This document shows, piece after piece, positions 3,963-13,980 of a DNA stretch of 17,676 nt. A program made the position numbers and the translations under genes. A model generated the notes under the pieces. That model ran no database searches and had not been told where the DNA came from. It saw nothing but the letters and a program-made list of their open reading frames with translations. Within the stretch, counting starts at the first letter, position 1. Each line of letters opens with the position of its first letter. Source of the DNA: a virus (Duplodnaviria; Heunggongvirae; Uroviricota; Caudoviricetes); IMG/VR virus record IMGVR_UViG_3300045988_087939, one strand, 5' to 3'.

Positions 3963-4748
3963 TTATGAGTGATTTTTATTTGATGCTTTGTATTCTAAAA
4001 CCTTCTTATTGGCGTAAAAGAATTTTGTATATGACAGGAATATAACCAGACCTGAAGTGAAATAGACGAGGGATAGTATTAATAATGCTTTTTTGTGACT
4101 GTTATTATCTTTAATCTCCTGGCTTAACCATTCGGAGTCCTCCTCGTTTAGCTGTAAGAGCTTATTGCAGGCGATTTCAGGAAGTGTGTCTTTTATAAAT
4201 ACGTTTTGCAGTCTCTTGCAATCGGCAAGGCTATAAGTTTTATTAAATTCAACTGCTTTATTTTTGAAGGATAAAAGAACTTTGTCACTATAAACATAGT
4301 ACATCATGTTTTTATATGGTATGCCTATGGCATCCCTTACTATAACGGATTGTTCGTTGTGTATGTAACATGCGAGGAGAATGTAAAAAATACTGGCCAG
4401 AATTACAATTATTGTTTTAATTATGTGTGGTGGTTTTGTTATGTCACCCCAGATGCGAGTAAGGAAAAAATACGATGTTTTTAGTTTTCCATCAATCAGT
4501 CCCTGCTGTATCATTCTCACATTTTCAATGCCTGATACATTGATTCCGTTAATTATTTTAAATAGTTGAATGTCGCGCCACTCGCGGTCAAGTCTTTTTA
4601 ATTTTTTGTCTGAATATCCAAAATTGAAATAATGTGCAATAAGCCTCATAAGGTTACTTTTACCAAAGCTAAAAAATGCTAATACTGCAAAGCTACAAAG
4701 GAAAAAAACGATTAGCCCCCACACATTAGTCACATTATAGCTGACCAT
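3963..4748 (-). CDS. AT-rich cargo (moron) gene: hypothetical 261-aa membrane protein with three predicted transmembrane segments, function unknown
   Basis: Reverse-strand ORF with a strong SD (AAGGAGAG) 4 nt upstream of the ATG. About 33% G+C in a sampled line against roughly 60% in flanking phage genes. Hydrophobic segments near residues 10-28, 103-123 and 220-240. Occupies the S-V junction, where P2 carries orf30. Confidence 0.8.
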   Translation of the reverse strand: MVSYNVTNVWGLIVFFLCSFAVLAFFSFGKSNLMRLIAHYFNFGYSDKKLKRLDREWRDIQLFKIINGINVSGIENVRMIQQGLIDGKLKTSYFFLTRIWGDITKPPHIIKTIIVILASIFYILLACYIHNEQSVIVRDAIGIPYKNMMYYVYSDKVLLSFKNKAVEFNKTYSLADCKRLQNVFIKDTLPEIACNKLLQLNEEDSEWLSQEIKDNNSHKKALLILSLVYFTSGLVIFLSYTKFFYANKKVLEYKASNKNHS

Positions 4749-7257: not shown

Positions 7258-9576
7258 ATGAGCACAAAATTCAGAACCGTTATCACCACTGCCGGTGCAG
7301 CAAAGCTGGCAGCGGCAACCGCACCGGGAGGGCGGAAGGTCAACATTACCACGATGGCCGTCGGGGATGGCGGTGGTAAATTGCCTGTCCCGGATGCCGG
7401 ACAGACCGGGCTTATCCATGAAGTCTGGCGACATGCGCTGAACAAAATCACCCTGGACAAACGAAACAGTAATTATATTATCGCAGAGCTGGTTATTCCG
7501 CCGGAGGTGGGCGGTTTCTGGATGCGTGAGCTTGGCCTGTACGATGATGCGGGAACGCTAATTGCCGTGGCGAACATGGCTGAAAGTTATAAACCCGCTC
7601 TTGCCGAAGGCTCAGGGCGTTCGCAGACCTGCCGCATGGTCATCATCGTCAGCAGTGTGGCCTCAGTGGAGCTGACCATTGACACCACAACGGTGATGGC
7701 AACGCAGGATTACGTTGATGACAAAATTGCAGAGCATGAACAGTCACGACGTCACCCGGACGCCTCGCTGACCGCAAAAGGTTTTACTCAGTTAAGCAGT
7801 GCAACCAACAGCGCGTCTGAAACACTGGCCGCAACGCCGAAAGCGGTAAAGGCCGCCTATGACCTTGCTAACGGGAAATATACCGCACAGGACGCTACCA
7901 CAGCGCGAAAAGGTCTTGTCCAGCTCAGTAGTGCCACCAACAGCACGTCTGAAACGCTCGCCGCAACACCAAAAGCGGTTAAGGCAGCGTATGACCTTGC
8001 TAACGGTAAATATACTGCACAGGACGCCACCACAGTGCGAAAAGGTCTTATCCAGCTCAGTAGCGTCACCAACAGCGATTCTGAAACGCTTGCGGCAACG
8101 CCAAAGGCGGTAAAGGCAGCGTATGACCTTGCTAACGGGAAATACACTGCACAGGATGCCACCACGGCGCGGAAAGGGCTTGTCCAGCTCAGTAGCGCCA
8201 CCAACAGTGATTCTGAAACGCTGGCCGCAACACCAAAAGCGGTGAAGTCTGCCTATGACAATGCTGAAAAACGTCTTCAGAAAGATCAGAACGGTGCGGA
8301 TATTCCGGGAAAGGATACCTTCACGAAAAATATCGGTGCCTGTCGTGCTTATAGCGGCGCTTTGAGCACTGAAGCCGGAAACTGGACAACCGCTCAGTTT
8401 ATTGAATGGCTGGATTCCCGTGGTGCATTTAATCATCCGTACTGGATGTGCAAAGGCTCCTGGTCATATGCAAATAACAAAATCATTACGGATACCGGAT
8501 GTGGTGATATCCACCTGGCTGGTTGTGTCGTCGAGGTCATGGGAACTAAATCTGCAATCACTATCCGAGTGACCACGCCGACAACATCAAGCGGTGGCGG
8601 TACAACCAGCGCACAATTCACTTACATTAATCATGGGGACGGCTACTCCCCCGGCTGGCGTCGTGACTGGAATCGTCAGGGCGACGCAATGACCGGAACG
8701 ATTAATCAGGACGGTGGAAGCCAGAATGCCTATATGTCTACGGCCTTATGTTCAGGCACAAGAGGCGGCAAAAAATATCTCAGAAAGTTTCGTGGTGGAG
8801 AAGGAGACACTATCTGGCATGAAACAGTACAGGGCGGGGTAGTTCGTTGGGCGACTGGTAATACTGATGCTCAGGAAGAATTATCACTCAGCTCCGCTTA
8901 TGGTCTCCGTTCAAGAGGTGAGATTACATCACTCAGTGCTAATGGTCTGCGCATTGCTTATGGCAATTATGGATTCTTTATCAGGAATGATGGCGGCAGC
9001 ACATATTTAATGCTGACGGCCTCTGGCGATAAATTTGGGACATGGAACGGCTTAAGACCGCTGACTATCAATAACGCCAATGGCGGAGTGTCAATGGGGC
9101 ATGGCCTGAGTGTTACAGGTGATATTGTCTCAAGTACCAAAGTACGTGCCGGTAGCGGGAAAAAGTTCACGGTCAGCAGCAGCAATACATCCACGAAGGA
9201 AGCCGCATTCAATTTGTGGGGAAACTCAAGTCGTCCTGTGGTGGCTGAATTAGGTGATGATGCAGGCTGGCATTTTTACAGTCAGAGAAATACAGATAAC
9301 AGCATCACTTTTGCTGTTAACGGGCAGGTATCACCATCTAACTATGGCAACTTTGATTCACGCTATGTCCGGGATATCCGGCTTGGTGGTGCTGCCACAT
9401 ACAAACCTGCGAACAATGGTATGACATGGACACATCAGGCACCGTCCGGGTGTGTATATTCCGGCATTATTGTTCAGGATACCGGCTCAAACTCTGCCGA
9501 TAACATTGGTGGCGTATATTACAGACCGGTGCAGAAATACATTAACGGGACTTGGTATAACGTGGCGCAGGTATAA
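7258..9576 (+). CDS. H: Tail fiber protein (P2 gpH-like) with a conserved N-terminal domain, four tandem fibre repeats and a divergent receptor-binding region
   Basis: 772-aa ORF with SD GTGAGGAA. The N-terminal ~170 aa and the C-terminal tail (…IQKYINGTWYNVAQV) resemble P2 gpH as I recall it. Four 44-aa repeats (…QLSSATNSxSETLAATPKAVKAAYDLANGKYTAQDATTARK). Central part is lower in G+C (about 42-43% in sampled lines). Confidence 0.88.
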   Translation: MSTKFRTVITTAGAAKLAAATAPGGRKVNITTMAVGDGGGKLPVPDAGQTGLIHEVWRHALNKITLDKRNSNYIIAELVIPPEVGGFWMRELGLYDDAGTLIAVANMAESYKPALAEGSGRSQTCRMVIIVSSVASVELTIDTTTVMATQDYVDDKIAEHEQSRRHPDASLTAKGFTQLSSATNSASETLAATPKAVKAAYDLANGKYTAQDATTARKGLVQLSSATNSTSETLAATPKAVKAAYDLANGKYTAQDATTVRKGLIQLSSVTNSDSETLAATPKAVKAAYDLANGKYTAQDATTARKGLVQLSSATNSDSETLAATPKAVKSAYDNAEKRLQKDQNGADIPGKDTFTKNIGACRAYSGALSTEAGNWTTAQFIEWLDSRGAFNHPYWMCKGSWSYANNKIITDTGCGDIHLAGCVVEVMGTKSAITIRVTTPTTSSGGGTTSAQFTYINHGDGYSPGWRRDWNRQGDAMTGTINQDGGSQNAYMSTALCSGTRGGKKYLRKFRGGEGDTIWHETVQGGVVRWATGNTDAQEELSLSSAYGLRSRGEITSLSANGLRIAYGNYGFFIRNDGGSTYLMLTASGDKFGTWNGLRPLTINNANGGVSMGHGLSVTGDIVSSTKVRAGSGKKFTVSSSNTSTKEAAFNLWGNSSRPVVAELGDDAGWHFYSQRNTDNSITFAVNGQVSPSNYGNFDSRYVRDIRLGGAATYKPANNGMTWTHQAPSGCVYSGIIVQDTGSNSADNIGGVYYRPVQKYINGTWYNVAQV
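7780..8259 (+). repeat. Tandem 132-bp (44-codon) repeat, about 3.6 copies, inside the tail fiber gene
   Basis: Units begin at 7780, 7912, 8044 and 8176 (the last is partial). Protein-level identity is near-complete while the DNA differs at many wobble positions. Confidence 0.85.
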
Positions 9577-9579
9577 TTT

Positions 9580-10107
9580 ATGCAGCATTTGATAAATATA
9601 ACGGCAGGTAATCCAAAAACGGTTGAACAATATCAATTGACAAAAGACTTTGATGTTGTCTGGTTTTTTTCAGAAGATGGTAAGAACTGGTACGAAGAAC
9701 AAAAGTATTTTGCTGATGACACGCTAAAAATAGCGTACGACAAAGATAATATCATCCGCTATGTGGAAAAGGATGTGACAGCTATCAGACCGGATGGATT
9801 AAGTGTTGTTGAAGTGGCGGATATTACTGCTAACCGACGGGCGGACATTTCAGGGAACTGGATGTTTAAGGACGGCAAAGTGATTAAACGCATTTATACG
9901 GCAGAGGAATTGCAGCAGCAGGCAGAAAACCGGAAAGCCAGACTTCTTGCAGATGCTGAATCCGTGATTTTGCCGCTGGAGCGTGCTGTCAGACTGAACA
10001 TGGCAACAGATGAGGAGCGTAGCCGACTGGAAGCATGGGAACGCTACAGCGTTCTGGTCAGTCGTGTGGATCCTGCAAATCCTGAATGGCCGGAAATGCC
10101 GCAATAA
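9580..10107 (+). CDS. G: Tail fiber assembly protein / chaperone (P2 gpG-like)
   Basis: 175 aa, the length of P2 gpG. Immediately follows H; the C-terminal part resembles tail-fiber-assembly proteins. The N-terminal part is AT-rich (about 32% in one sampled line). Confidence 0.85.
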
Positions 10108-10141
10108 GTTGTATGATCTCTGGAGTGAGCAAACGTATCTA

Positions 10142-10183
10142 TGGCACAGAGTTAAGCCTAATCTGACAGTACGCTCTGTGCCA
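10142..10183. repeat. Inverted repeat/hairpin just downstream of G
   Basis: TGGCACAGAG (10142-10151) pairs with CTCTGTGCCA (10174-10183), a 10-bp stem with a 22-nt spacer, about 35 nt after the G stop. No U-tract follows. Confidence 0.3.
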
Positions 10184-10310
10184 GGAGCGGATACTTTAAT
10201 GTTCTATCACTATTGGATATGATTATCATGAAACTACCTTAAATTAACATCTTGCTAAAGATGCAACCAAAAGTTACCTTCAGGGAATTGTGAGCTGATA
10301 AGAAGAATAG

Positions 10311-10339
10311 TTGTATCTAATAAGATGTTGAGTTTTAAT
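10311..10339 (+). promoter_or_regulatory. Candidate sigma70-type promoter for the ATPase-Toprim cargo gene
   Basis: TTGTAT (10311-10316), 17-nt spacer, TTTAAT (10334-10339), about 30 nt upstream of the ATG in an AT-rich intergenic region. A strong SD (AAGGAGGG) follows at about 10354-10361. Confidence 0.3.
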
Positions 10340-10369
10340 TAAACTCCATGCGAACAAGGAGGGCAAAAA

Positions 10370-11983
10370 ATGAGCAATTCATTTTCAATTACACTACCTA
10401 CAAAAGAAAAAGACCTAGCGGAAATAGAGACTAATCAGAGCGTGCTTATTATCGGTGCGAATGGCTCTGGAAAGTCTCGCCTTGGGACATGGATGGATCT
10501 AAAATCTCCTCAAAGAAATATTGTTCATCGTATTTCCGCTCAGCGGGCTTTAGCGATGCCTGACCATACAACACCAACTTCGCTTCAACAAGCACAGAAT
10601 AATTTACTCTATGGAATTGAAAATTTGGAAGGGTCGGAACTACTTTGGTATAAAGAGAATTATCGCTGGGGAAGTAAACCTGCCATATCATCATTAAATG
10701 ATTATGGTAAATTAATGGTGTATCTCTTTTCAGACAAAATTGAAGAAAACTCGAAATATATTGAATTAGTTAAATCTTCAGAAAAAAGAATTGAACCAAC
10801 GACGACTAAATTAGATAAAATTAAATATATTTGGGAAAAAACATTACCTCACCGAGAGCTTGTTTTAGGCGGTTTGACAATTCAAACACGAGCAAAAGGA
10901 AATAACGAGGCTGTCTATAACCCCTCGGAAATGAGCGACGGTGAGCGAGTTATTTTCTATCTGATTGGGCAATGTCTTGCAGCACCCGAAAATGGAATTA
11001 TTGTCATAGACGAGCCAGAAATTCATCTTCACAAATCTGTACAAGTTCCATTATGGAAGGATATAGAAAAACTCCGACCTGATTGCCTGTTTGTATATAT
11101 GACTCATGATACTGATTTTGCTGCAGCACTGCATGATGCAAAGAAAATCTGGTTAAAAAGTTATGATGGTTCCAGTTGGGATTGGGAAGATGTTCCCGAT
11201 GTCGAAGGCCTACCAGAAAGTTTATTAATTGAAATATTGGGTAGTAGAAAACCAATTGTTTTTGTTGAGGGGGAAAATGGAAGCTATGATGTATCCCTTT
11301 ATCGTGCTGTGTTAAATAGTTATCTAGTGATACCATCTGGTTCTTGTAGTCAAGTAATACAAAATGTTAAAGCTCTAAGAGCCAGTGAAAAACTCCATTA
11401 TATGGAAGTTTTTGGTATTATTGATAGGGATAGACGTGTTGAAAATGAAATTCAATCGCTTCTGGAATACGGTATTTATACTCTAAGCGTGGCTGAAGTC
11501 GAAAATCTCTTTTGCGTTCCGGAAGTTATAACTTTAGTTAGCGAACGATTAGTCAGGAATCCAGATAAAGATCTACAATCAGTTAAAGATTTTGTGTTCC
11601 GTAAAATATCCTCAGAGCTGGATACTCAGATTTCACTGCGTGTGGCTGGCGAAATTAAATTCATGCTTAATTGTTTTGATGAAAAAGCAAAAGGGGTCGA
11701 TGCTCTTAGTAGAGCTCTTGAGTTGTTGACGTCACAAATTAATGTTAAAGAGCTTTATGATGAAAGTTTATCTCTGTTTAATAATGCAGTTGAGAAACGT
11801 GATTATCTTCTTGCATTAAAACTTTATAACAGGAAAAGCCTTTCATCCCAAGTAAGTAAGCATCTGGGGCTGGCTAATGGACAGCTTGCTGAATTAGTGG
11901 TCAGGATGGCTAATAATGAAAGTGGAGAGTCAATGAGAAATGCTCTCAGACCATATTTTGGTGAGTTTTCGAGTAAAATATAG
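10370..11983 (+). CDS. Cargo gene in the G-FI (Z/fun) hotspot: ABC-type ATPase fused to a Toprim/DUF4435-like putative nuclease domain; candidate single-gene anti-phage defence protein (OLD-like or fused PARIS-like)
   Basis: 537 aa. Walker A GANGSGKS (aa 29-36, nt 10454-10477); signature-like MSDGER (aa 188-193); Walker B IIVIDEPE followed by HLH (aa 210-221); H-loop-like YMTHD (aa 243-247). C-terminal half has Toprim-like motifs: IVFVEGENGSYD (aa 296-307), IIDRDRR (aa 350-356) and VAEVEN (aa 374-379), then a helical tail. G+C is about 25-43% in sampled lines. Confidence 0.8.
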   Translation: MSNSFSITLPTKEKDLAEIETNQSVLIIGANGSGKSRLGTWMDLKSPQRNIVHRISAQRALAMPDHTTPTSLQQAQNNLLYGIENLEGSELLWYKENYRWGSKPAISSLNDYGKLMVYLFSDKIEENSKYIELVKSSEKRIEPTTTKLDKIKYIWEKTLPHRELVLGGLTIQTRAKGNNEAVYNPSEMSDGERVIFYLIGQCLAAPENGIIVIDEPEIHLHKSVQVPLWKDIEKLRPDCLFVYMTHDTDFAAALHDAKKIWLKSYDGSSWDWEDVPDVEGLPESLLIEILGSRKPIVFVEGENGSYDVSLYRAVLNSYLVIPSGSCSQVIQNVKALRASEKLHYMEVFGIIDRDRRVENEIQSLLEYGIYTLSVAEVENLFCVPEVITLVSERLVRNPDKDLQSVKDFVFRKISSELDTQISLRVAGEIKFMLNCFDEKAKGVDALSRALELLTSQINVKELYDESLSLFNNAVEKRDYLLALKLYNRKSLSSQVSKHLGLANGQLAELVVRMANNESGESMRNALRPYFGEFSSKI

Positions 11984-12134
11984 TTATACAGAGTGCATAA
12001 TACTTATCGTGACTGTGGTTGGATGATGTGTGTGGTTCATGTGTCTGCTCCTCGCTCACAGCAGGCTGTCAGATTTGATAGCGTTTGGGCTATGTAAATT
12101 GTCAGTTGGAAAATGAGTGAGTGCAAGTCAGGAC

Positions 12135-12162
12135 AGGCGGGCGAATTGCCCGCCTTTTCTTT
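12135..12162 (+). terminator. Rho-independent terminator downstream of the cargo ATPase-Toprim gene
   Basis: GC-rich stem GGCGGGC (12136-12142) / GCCCGCC (12148-12154) with a 5-nt loop, followed by TTTTCTTT (12155-12162). Confidence 0.7.
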
Positions 12163-12165
12163 ATC

Positions 12166-12190
12166 TGTTGTTTCATCCACTGACCAGACA
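12166..12190 (+). promoter_or_regulatory. Candidate late-promoter activator site upstream of FI (P_F-like)
   Basis: TGTTGTTTCATCCACTGACCAGACA begins with the same TGTTGT hexamer seen upstream of V and ends in ACA, about 70-90 nt upstream of the FI ATG. Spacing does not match TGT-N12-ACA exactly. Confidence 0.25.
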
Positions 12191-12258
12191 GGTCAAATAG
12201 CGTCTCAGGCACTGCCCAATAGAAAATAGTTGCACCCATTAACCACGGAGTTAAACGG

Positions 12259-13449
12259 ATGAGTGACTATCATCACGGCGTGCAGGTGCTGGAGATTAAC
12301 GACGGCACCCGCGTCATTTCCACCGTATCCACCGCCATTGTCGGCATGGTCTGCACGGCCAGCGATGCGGATGCGGAAATCTTCCCCCTCAATAAACCGG
12401 TGCTGATTACCAATGTGCAGAGCGCAATTGCAAAGGCCGGTAAAAAAGGCACGCTGGCGGCATCGTTGCAGGCCATCGCCGACCAGTCAAAACCGGTCAC
12501 CGTTGTCGTGCGTGTGGAAGACGGCACCGGCGAAGACGAAGAAACGAAACTCGCGCAGACTGTTTCCAATATCATCGGAACCACCGACGAAAACGGTCAG
12601 TACACCGGACTGAAAGCCCTGCTGGCGGCGGAGTCGGTAACCGGTGTTAAACCGCGTATTCTTGGTGTGCCGGGGCTGGATACCAAAGAGGTGGCTGTTG
12701 CACTGGCATCAGTCTGTCAGAAGCTGCGCGCTTTCGGGTATATCAGCGCATGGGGCTGTAAAACCATTTCTGAGGTGAAAGCCTACCGCCAGAATTTCAG
12801 CCAGCGTGAGCTGATGGTCATCTGGCCGGATTTCCTCGCATGGGATACGGTCACCAGTACCACCGCCACCGCGTATGCCACCGCACGTGCGCTGGGTCTG
12901 CGTGCCAAAATCGACCAGGAGCAGGGCTGGCATAAAACGCTGTCCAACGTCGGGGTGAACGGTGTTACCGGCATCAGCGCATCTGTATTTTGGGATTTGC
13001 AGGAGTCCGGCACCGATGCTGACCTGCTTAACGAGTCAGGCGTCACAACACTGATTCGCCGTGACGGTTTCCGCTTCTGGGGTAACCGTACCTGCTCTGA
13101 TGACCCGCTGTTCTTCTTTGAAAACTACACCCGCACCGCGCAGGTGCTGGCCGACACGATGGCTGAGGCGCACATGTGGGCGGTGGACAAGCCCATCACC
13201 GCAACGCTGATTCGCGACATCGTTGACGGCATCAATGCCAAATTCCGTGAGCTGAAAACAAACGGCTATATCGTGGATGCGACCTGCTGGTTCAGCGAAG
13301 AATCCAACGATGCGGAAACCCTCAAGGCCGGAAAACTGTATATCGACTACGACTATACCCCGGTGCCTCCTCTTGAAAACCTGACCCTGCGCCAGCGTAT
13401 CACCGATAAATATCTGGCAAATCTGGTCACCTCGGTTAACAGCAATTAA
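12259..13449 (+). CDS. FI: Contractile tail sheath protein (P2 gpFI-like)
   Basis: 396 aa, the length of P2 gpFI. Syntenic; high G+C. Confidence 0.9.
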   Translation: MSDYHHGVQVLEINDGTRVISTVSTAIVGMVCTASDADAEIFPLNKPVLITNVQSAIAKAGKKGTLAASLQAIADQSKPVTVVVRVEDGTGEDEETKLAQTVSNIIGTTDENGQYTGLKALLAAESVTGVKPRILGVPGLDTKEVAVALASVCQKLRAFGYISAWGCKTISEVKAYRQNFSQRELMVIWPDFLAWDTVTSTTATAYATARALGLRAKIDQEQGWHKTLSNVGVNGVTGISASVFWDLQESGTDADLLNESGVTTLIRRDGFRFWGNRTCSDDPLFFFENYTRTAQVLADTMAEAHMWAVDKPITATLIRDIVDGINAKFRELKTNGYIVDATCWFSEESNDAETLKAGKLYIDYDYTPVPPLENLTLRQRITDKYLANLVTSVNSN

Positions 13450-13461
13450 GGAGCCTGACCG

Positions 13462-13980
13462 ATGGCAATGCCGCGCAAACTCAAGTTAATGAACGTCTTT
13501 CTGAACGGCTACAGCTATCAGGGCGTTGCAAAGTCCGTCACGCTGCCAAAACTGACCCGTAAGCTCGAAAACTATCGCGGTGCGGGGATGAACGGCAGCG
13601 CACCGGTAGACCTCGGCCTTGATGACGATGCCCTGTCAATGGAGTGGTCGCTCGGTGGTTTCCCGGATTCGGTTATCTGGGAGCTTTACGCAGCAACCGG
13701 TGTGGATGTCGTGCCGATTCGTTTTGCAGGCTCTTACCAGCGCGACGATACCGGCGAAACGGTGGCCGTCGAGGTGGTCATGCGTGGACGTCAGAAAGAA
13801 ATCGACACCGGCGAGGGTAAACAGGGAGAAGACACCGAGTCGAAAATCTCTGTGGTCTGCACCTATTTCCGGCTGACGATGGACGGTAAGGAGCTGGTCG
13901 AAATCGACACCATCAACATGATTGAGAAGGTGAACGGCGTCGACCGGCTGGAGCAACACCGCCGAAATATCGGCCTGTGA
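13462..13980 (+). CDS. FII: Tail tube protein (P2 gpFII-like)
   Basis: 172 aa, the length of P2 gpFII. Immediately follows the sheath gene. Confidence 0.9.
   Translation: MAMPRKLKLMNVFLNGYSYQGVAKSVTLPKLTRKLENYRGAGMNGSAPVDLGLDDDALSMEWSLGGFPDSVIWELYAATGVDVVPIRFAGSYQRDDTGETVAVEVVMRGRQKEIDTGEGKQGEDTESKISVVCTYFRLTMDGKELVEIDTINMIEKVNGVDRLEQHRRNIGL

Follow-up and report, generated by a model that had tools for sequence, protein, structure and literature searches.

In the PARIS system of Escherichia coli B185, sensing of Ocr is followed by release and dimerisation of AriB and by cleavage of tRNA-Lys/Thr/Asn. The long coiled-coil and insertion domains of AriA build the hexameric propeller and the trigger-sensing pores of this system. 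Its catalytic residues are K39 and E393 in AriA and E26 and E90 in AriB; E26A and E90A of AriB are the catalytic-dead mutants of the PARIS studies. Single-gene PARIS fusions were described by Rousset (2022), together with profiles for AAA_15+DUF4435 and AAA_21+DUF4435 fusions (PMC9122126), and Burman (2024) distinguished 11 PARIS clades, two of them with a merged ariAB derived once from the two-gene clade 9 (PMC11464382). Here we analyse a gene in a 17,676-nucleotide stretch of Caudoviricetes DNA (IMG/VR record IMGVR_UViG_3300045988_087939, hereafter the window, whose positions are used throughout). With good confidence, the open reading frame (ORF) at 10370-11983 is a merged PARIS gene, ariAB. 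The AT-rich cargo to which it belongs occupies the G-FI (Z/fun) hotspot for defence genes in a P2-like prophage of E. coli. The gene is a member of a catalogued family at a published hotspot, and not a new one. An initial annotation of the window had seen in it a one-gene ABC-ATPase plus Toprim/DUF4435 defence candidate, which our results bear out, and had left it undecided between an OLD or PARIS variant and a new family; this choice now falls on the known merged PARIS (AriAB).

The profile searches that the initial annotation had proposed gave positive results. Pfam DUF4435 (PF14491) matches residues 293-426 at 74.1 bits, against a cut-off of 27, and reaches E = 2.5e-21 when the C-terminal half is scanned alone. 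For the ATPase, AAA_21 scores 40.8 bits, above its cut-off of 27, and AAA_15 scores 26.6 bits, under its cut-off of 32.1. The PARIS rule of Rousset (2022) accepts either of these two ATPase families, and here it is AAA_21 that supplies it (PMC9122126). The PADLOC model of the fused protein, AriAB (PDLC02982), runs from end to end, with residues 3-534 aligned to positions 25-568 of the 570 of the profile (E = 1.9e-187, 622 bits). The protein also matches PHROG 25246 (E = 1.9e-269), which is placed in the category of morons and misleadingly labelled 'ABC transporter'. Both the PADLOC and the PHROG profile extend beyond the protein, reaching 24-71 positions upstream of the AriAB start, and the window holds no earlier in-frame start. 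None of the NCBIfam models comes near its cut-off (for example 30 bits against 380), hence the uninformative RefSeq name 'DUF4435 domain-containing protein'.

The two halves, taken separately, point to the same family. After the fused model, the best PADLOC score of the N-terminal half is on AriA (54 bits), ahead of NsnB (42.8), mad3 (39.8) and GajA (37), and AbiLi and PtuA also score below AriA. The C-terminal half alone obtains 66 bits on PADLOC AriB, a model on which the AriB of B185 itself obtains 34.7 bits. With hmmscan, Pfam DUF4435 is reached by the AriB of O42 and by the AriAB protein, but not by the AriB of B185.

All the ATPase and Toprim motifs quoted in the initial annotation are present, and their key residues do not vary. 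The ATPase half carries GANGSGKS (with K35), MSDGER, IIVIDEPE and THD (245-247), and the nuclease half carries VEGE (299-302, with E300), DRD (352-354) and E376/E378-N379. In an alignment of 32 diverse homologues (58-91% identity), G29, G32, G34, K35, Q58, S189, G191, E192, D214, E215 and H246 of the ATPase half and E300, D352, D354, E376, E378 and N379 of the nuclease half are invariant. The sequence of B185 AriB in Rousset Table S2 reads VEG-x-x-D (E26), D-R-E (D88/E90) and L-E-N (E122/N123). Its E26, D88/E90 and E122 correspond to VEGENGSYD (E300), DRD (D352/D354) and VEN (E378) of the present protein, in the same order and with the same spacing.

Structure prediction of the two halves, also suggested in the initial annotation, gave models that match AriA and AriB. 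The AlphaFold2 models were built with the 32-sequence alignment and reached a pLDDT of 89.4 and a pTM of 0.78 at full length, and of 91.9 and 0.86, respectively, for residues 285-537. Among defence families and solved structures, the ATPase half is closest to AriA and the Toprim half to AriB, so that the PARIS folds are present in both. It is because the profile definitions and the fold agree that we place the protein in PARIS.

Table 1. Positions in the window of ariAB, its two halves, the cargo slot, and the neighbouring signals and genes.
Feature	Coordinates	Strand	Basis and remarks
ariAB, 537-aa fused PARIS protein (most probable identity), WP_000071451.1	10370..11983	+	ORF, translation, PADLOC, PHROG, RefSeq
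N-terminal ABC-ATPase half, residues 1-288	10370..11233	+	Walker A 29-36, Q58, signature 188-193, Walker B 210-217, H246
C-terminal DUF4435/Toprim nuclease half, residues 293-537	11246..11983	+	E300, D352/D354, E376/E378
AT-rich cargo DNA, 36.6% G+C	~10188..12041	.	limits of homology to Wphi and P24B2; G+C values
Shine-Dalgarno sequence AAGGAGGG	10356..10363	+	read in sequence; strong; ATG 6 nt downstream
Left arm	10137..10199 (inverted-repeat arm 10160-10199)	+	kept in P2-like backbones, Proteus and Providencia sites
Right arm	12036..12083 (inverted-repeat arm 12036-12075)	+	30/40 complementary to left arm
Intrinsic terminator AGGCGGGCGAATTGCCCGCCT + T-run	12135..12165 (hairpin 12135-12155)	+	terminator scan; kept in Wphi and P24B2
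Tail fibre assembly gene G (flank)	9580..10107	+	Caudo_TAP E = 7.4e-35; RefSeq annotation
Tail sheath gene FI (flank)	12259..13449	+	Phage_sheath_1 E = 1e-33; RefSeq annotation

Several observations weigh against this assignment. Direct sequence similarity to the studied PARIS proteins is nearly absent, and the link therefore rests on the shared profiles (DUF4435 and PADLOC AriA/AriB) and on the fold. Indeed, a phmmer search of the protein against the PDB gave nothing at E <= 0.01, the family profile reached AriA in the PDB only at E = 0.025, in the signature/Walker B region, and never reached AriB, and an hhalign comparison of the family profile with the AriB sequences of B185 and O42 was not significant. 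The ATPase half is also far shorter than AriA, with its signature at residue 188 instead of about 366. From Walker A to the signature, only about 100 aa are inserted (roughly residues 61-160, with four helices over 72-158 in the model), some 180 aa less than in AriA. Since most of the coiled-coil/trigger-binding insertion of AriA is thus absent, the sensing of the trigger may differ. Furthermore, a sigma-70 consensus scan detected no promoter upstream of ariAB, and our survey of the searchable literature yielded no experimental work on a fused AriAB.

Could the gene belong to another family of ATPase-nuclease proteins? A class 1 OLD-family nuclease like P2 Old would be a DNase answering a perturbation such as RecBCD inhibition, and not a tRNase. 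It would share the same architecture, the ATPase preceding the Toprim domain in one chain, and the leading whole-chain matches of Foldseek include GajA, the Thermus OLD nuclease and PtuA. Moreover, PARIS itself has been placed among the OLD-like systems, as class 4 (PMC11464382). We nevertheless consider this identity unlikely, as the C-terminal domain is a DUF4435 domain and no other Toprim-type Pfam family, Toprim_Old included, matches at E <= 0.01. In addition, the PADLOC AriAB and AriB models outscore all the OLD-like and ATPase-Toprim models, among which ATPase-Toprim_I-B obtains just 31 bits. The label of PHROG 25246, several names given by JGI (transporter ATPases, 'EcfA2') and weak ABC_tran and NCBIfam matches would rather suggest the ATP-binding subunit of an ABC transporter, or another housekeeping ATPase. 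The domain architecture effectively refutes this reading, the C-terminal half having a Toprim/DUF4435 nuclease fold. Besides the NCBIfam scores, which lie far under their cut-offs, ABC_tran reaches only 19.2 bits against 25, no membrane gene lies nearby, and the location is a phage defence hotspot.

Another possibility is a two-component system, for instance Gabija (GajA and the GajB helicase), Septu or AbiL, of which the protein would be one member, inactive alone and with its partner elsewhere or lost. This we hold to be very improbable. The cargo has no room for a second gene and contains no GajB helicase gene, in agreement with the initial annotation, which had noted the lack of such a partner; the PADLOC GajA model covers only the ATPase region, at 35 bits; and the nuclease domain that such systems supply in trans is already fused here. 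A length of about 538 aa kept across phyla at 58-70% identity also points to a unit that suffices on its own. In four other genomic contexts, one of Marinobacter, one of Anabaena and two of Proteus, no neighbour is conserved: the neighbouring ORFs were unrelated and similarity was seen only within the same Proteus island, and we accordingly rejected a conserved partner gene for AriAB. These unrelated neighbours support a self-sufficient one-gene system. One of the neighbourhoods contains toxin-antitoxin genes, and another a Fic gene and an integrase fragment.

The family to which we assign the protein is large. At least 2748 homologues, about 538 aa long, were recovered by a word-indexed search, spread over Gammaproteobacteria, cyanobacteria, Bacteroidota and Brocadiales. 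The best 120 of them show 58-99% identity and come from Enterobacterales, Marinobacter, Pseudoalteromonas, Psychrobacter, cyanobacteria, a Bacteroidota metagenome-assembled genome and Brocadiales. Most measure about 530-560 aa, and three are shorter (383 or 427 aa). These three short homologues (P0013, P0014 and P0029; 383-427 aa) are 84-100% identical to the protein over 71-79% of its length, and probably reflect either a mis-called start or a truncation.

As for the mechanism, we take the B185 system as a model for the trigger, target, oligomeric state and phenotype proposed here. The ATPase half would serve, in the lysogen, as an ATP-dependent sensor of a protein of the infecting phage. Sensing would turn on the Toprim half, probably through dimerisation of the nuclease domain, and this half, as a two-metal RNase, would cut host tRNA, leading to a translation stop and to aborted infection. 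The prophage-bearing population would thereby be shielded from competing phages. The covalent fusion implies that activation does not proceed by simple release of the nuclease from the ATPase scaffold, as it does in B185. It may instead involve a rearrangement in cis or within an oligomer, or follow proteolytic separation of the two halves. The most economical scheme would have two Toprim domains meet when a dimer or oligomer rearranges.

The cargo itself is smaller than first described. The initial annotation had delimited an island of about 2.1 kb at 10108-12258, a span that includes backbone sequence. The homology of the window to Wphi and P24B2, two phages with other genes at G-FI, stops at about 10184-10187 and restarts at about 12042-12044, which leaves a cargo of about 1.85 kb (Table 1). 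Its AT-rich character is confirmed, but the contrast is smaller than the 25-43% against about 60% G+C given initially, the remainder of the window having 54.4%. In 300-nt windows, the G+C content is 31-41% over 10150-12100 and 52-59% downstream. The gene was initially presented as the only one of the insert, and ariAB is indeed, with its intact frame, the sole substantial ORF between G and FI. The remaining ORFs of at least 60 aa are two antisense frames inside it and one of 70 aa that overlaps the end of G and has no family match in Pfam.

The initial annotation had further credited the gene with its own Shine-Dalgarno sequence, a plausible promoter and an intrinsic terminator, and had called it an autonomous moron. 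The Shine-Dalgarno sequence is there, and it is strong. The promoter is unsupported: the sigma-70 consensus scan gave 0 sites in 10108-10369, and the region as a whole is no richer in such sites than its shuffles (5 sites, against 6.0 +/- 2.7). Expression in the lysogen needs a promoter in about 10190-10369, and it is probably there, as the 230 bp upstream of the gene accompany ariAB into Proteus chromosomes at 89% identity. The terminator does exist but is not the island's own. It sits in a 215-bp segment that is about 95% conserved among P2-like phages with other cargo, and since this segment is kept whatever the cargo, we attribute it to the P2 backbone, upstream of FI. It closes the V-to-G late operon together with the cargo. 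As ariAB is co-oriented with the V-W-J-I-H-G operon and no terminator lies in between, late-lytic transcription is expected to read through into it. Altogether, an autonomous moron with its own promoter and terminator is not supported.

The placement of the insert between G and FI at a defence hotspot stands, with flanks identified by Pfam and RefSeq and a published fun site (PMC9519451, Egorov 2024 preprint). The P2 hotspot analysed by Rousset is A-Q (old/tin), not G-FI (PMC9122126). A second defence-enriched P2 locus, the one containing fun, was reported by Vassallo (2022) (PMC9519451), and the Z/fun hotspot was recovered in the Egorov 2024 preprint. In RefSeq, the surroundings are P2-type late genes, namely capsid, terminase small subunit, lysis, R, S, V, W, J and I, and the order continues with tail fibre H, G, ariAB, sheath FI, tube FII, E, T, U, D and ogr; the Phage_sheath and Phage_tube Pfam matches cover 12259-13980. 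The 2151-bp span from the end of G to the start of FI is 100% identical to that of the P2-like prophage of E. coli MB07081 and MEI4B-1023, and four more complete genomes match it at 99.7% identity or more. The full island is present in 6 of 5426 complete E. coli genomes, and its conserved flank in 962. A search of the deposited phage genomes did not find the full island, and it occupies a single locus (L127) among the 120 listed IMG/VR loci that we sampled through the flank motif.

Three features of the neighbouring genes may be mentioned. Compared with Wphi and P24B2, G shows an identity of only 74-76% and FI of 95-99%, a difference that fits the swapping of receptor-binding modules reported beside the G-FI hotspot. 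The tail fibre H (7258-9576) combines a P2-type N-terminal collar domain, fibre repeats and a T4 gp34-like trimerisation domain (Pfam Gp34_trimer, E = 1.1e-24). Finally, an antisense ORF of 261 aa lies between S and V (3963-4748, minus strand); it is a RefSeq 'hypothetical protein' (WP_000255496.1) with no PADLOC match, and may be a second moron or defence candidate. Its place is the junction that, in another P2-like lineage, is a hotspot flanked by the arms described below.

How does cargo enter this slot? A 2026 survey of P2/P4 defence loci describes a P2 hotspot within the tail genes, reports no significant numbers of transposable elements at hotspots and discusses candidate mechanisms without settling on one, the recombination processes being still to be elucidated. 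In the window, the cargo is bracketed by two arms that form the best inverted repeat of the region. They are complementary at 30 of 40 positions, whereas 60 shuffles gave best 40-nt inverted matches of 25.0 +/- 0.8 on average and never more than 27. The left arm holds a 9-bp dyad, GGCACAGAG-N22-CTCTGTGCC (10137-10183), with the core AATCTGACAG in its loop and no T-run after it. This dyad is kept in nearly all the sampled P2-like loci.

We searched IMG/VR with the core pattern of the left arm, which gave at least 120 loci (L015-L134). The arms were then analysed in the 120 listed loci and in others, including L002, L003, L006, L009, L013 and L014. Among all the loci so analysed, 75 viral contigs have both arms, in 51 unique arm pairs. 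Between these arms, at the G-FI junction of E. coli P2-like phages, lie 41 clusters of cargo of 0.8-5.8 kb, all of them AT-rich (32-45% G+C); the main ORF runs along the plus strand in 24 of them and along the minus strand in the other 17. PADLOC recognised four of nine cargo representatives. The arms measure about 36-40 nt, and their consensus sequences, AATCTGACAGTCCGCTCTGTGCCAGGAGCGGACATT and AATGTCCGCTCCTCGCTCAAAGCAGACTGTCAGATT, are complementary at 32 of 36 positions.

The arms probably do not act as a stem. We rejected the idea that they pair in a stem, of RNA or DNA, that is under selection and loops out the cargo: four arm positions are mismatched in essentially all 51 unique pairs, a permutation test revealed no covariation between the arms within loci (508/5000 overall; 886/5000 for the variable inner part), and the cargo is found in either orientation. 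The fixed mismatches and the lack of covariation suggest two conserved inverted sites instead. Integron attC sites, Gin/Hin-type invertase sites and ERIC-type repeats were considered by eye and tentatively set aside; an attC-like GTTRRRY core is not conserved between loci.

The same arms are found at other sites. In a second P2-like lineage (about 60% protein identity), at least six contigs (L058, L110, L112, L114, L122 and L126) show the left arm directly behind S, ahead of V. In L110, the single locus with both arms there, the right arm was confirmed after 3.7 kb of cargo. These S-V arms make the arms appear portable between hotspots. In the window itself, a scan located them only at G-FI, with no second copy at its own S-V junction. 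Outside the P2 context, in Proteus loci with an 89%-identical AriAB, the homology to the window runs from 10136-10137 to 12064-12079, slightly past the cargo and into sequence that is also P2 backbone. The Proteus chromosomal site, near fic, ychF and pth, has the arms, and the same immediate flanks occur in Providencia. The cargo between the Proteus and Providencia arms is AriAB, a nucleotidyltransferase on the opposite strand, or a DUF3800 protein matching the PADLOC candidate PDC-S51. The latter protein is shared by an E. coli P2-like G-FI locus (L052, E = 2.5e-105) and by Providencia stuartii (L014:5583-6806, E = 2.7e-73), in opposite orientations relative to the arms.

Tentatively, then, the arms may delimit a portable, orientation-free cassette slot, used by AriAB and by other cargo at several sites. 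A recombinase could use them as sites of homology or recognition, or they could be what is left of a long palindrome with the cargo at its centre. We found no mention of inverted repeats at the Z/fun hotspot in the searchable literature, outside which lie the subscription-only P2 papers, and the conserved inverted repeats bracketing the slot may be new. If the arms do mediate swapping, they would provide the missing mechanism for the rapid turnover of defence genes in P2-like phages. Arms found around many cargos, at several sites and in different elements offer a testable handle on the exchange of defence cassettes.

In conclusion, our study gives this gene a correct label in place of 'DUF4435 domain-containing protein', and it compares as follows with the systems already known. 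P2 Old, the class 1 OLD protein of the other P2 hotspot (A-Q), is likewise a single-chain ABC ATPase plus Toprim protein borne by a prophage, and it is an exclusion gene that causes abortive infection. AriAB differs from it in its nuclease, which is DUF4435/AriB-like and not Toprim_Old, and in its location, at G-FI and not A-Q. In the two-gene PARIS of E. coli B185 (AriA6:AriB3; PDB 8ux9, 8v46), AriA and AriB are separate chains, whereas the AriAB halves are covalently joined, and the identity between the two systems is only about 12-18%. Merged AriAB proteins are widespread and, with their halves covalently linked, they cannot be activated by release in the way shown for the PARIS of B185. 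With 537 aa and a native E. coli background, the present protein would be a convenient model for an ABC-ATPase sensor that switches on a tethered Toprim RNase. From the merged PARIS systems already catalogued (PADLOC AriAB, the 'merged 1/2' clades of Burman and the single-gene fusions of Rousset) it shows no detectable difference: it has the same domains in a stand-alone gene.

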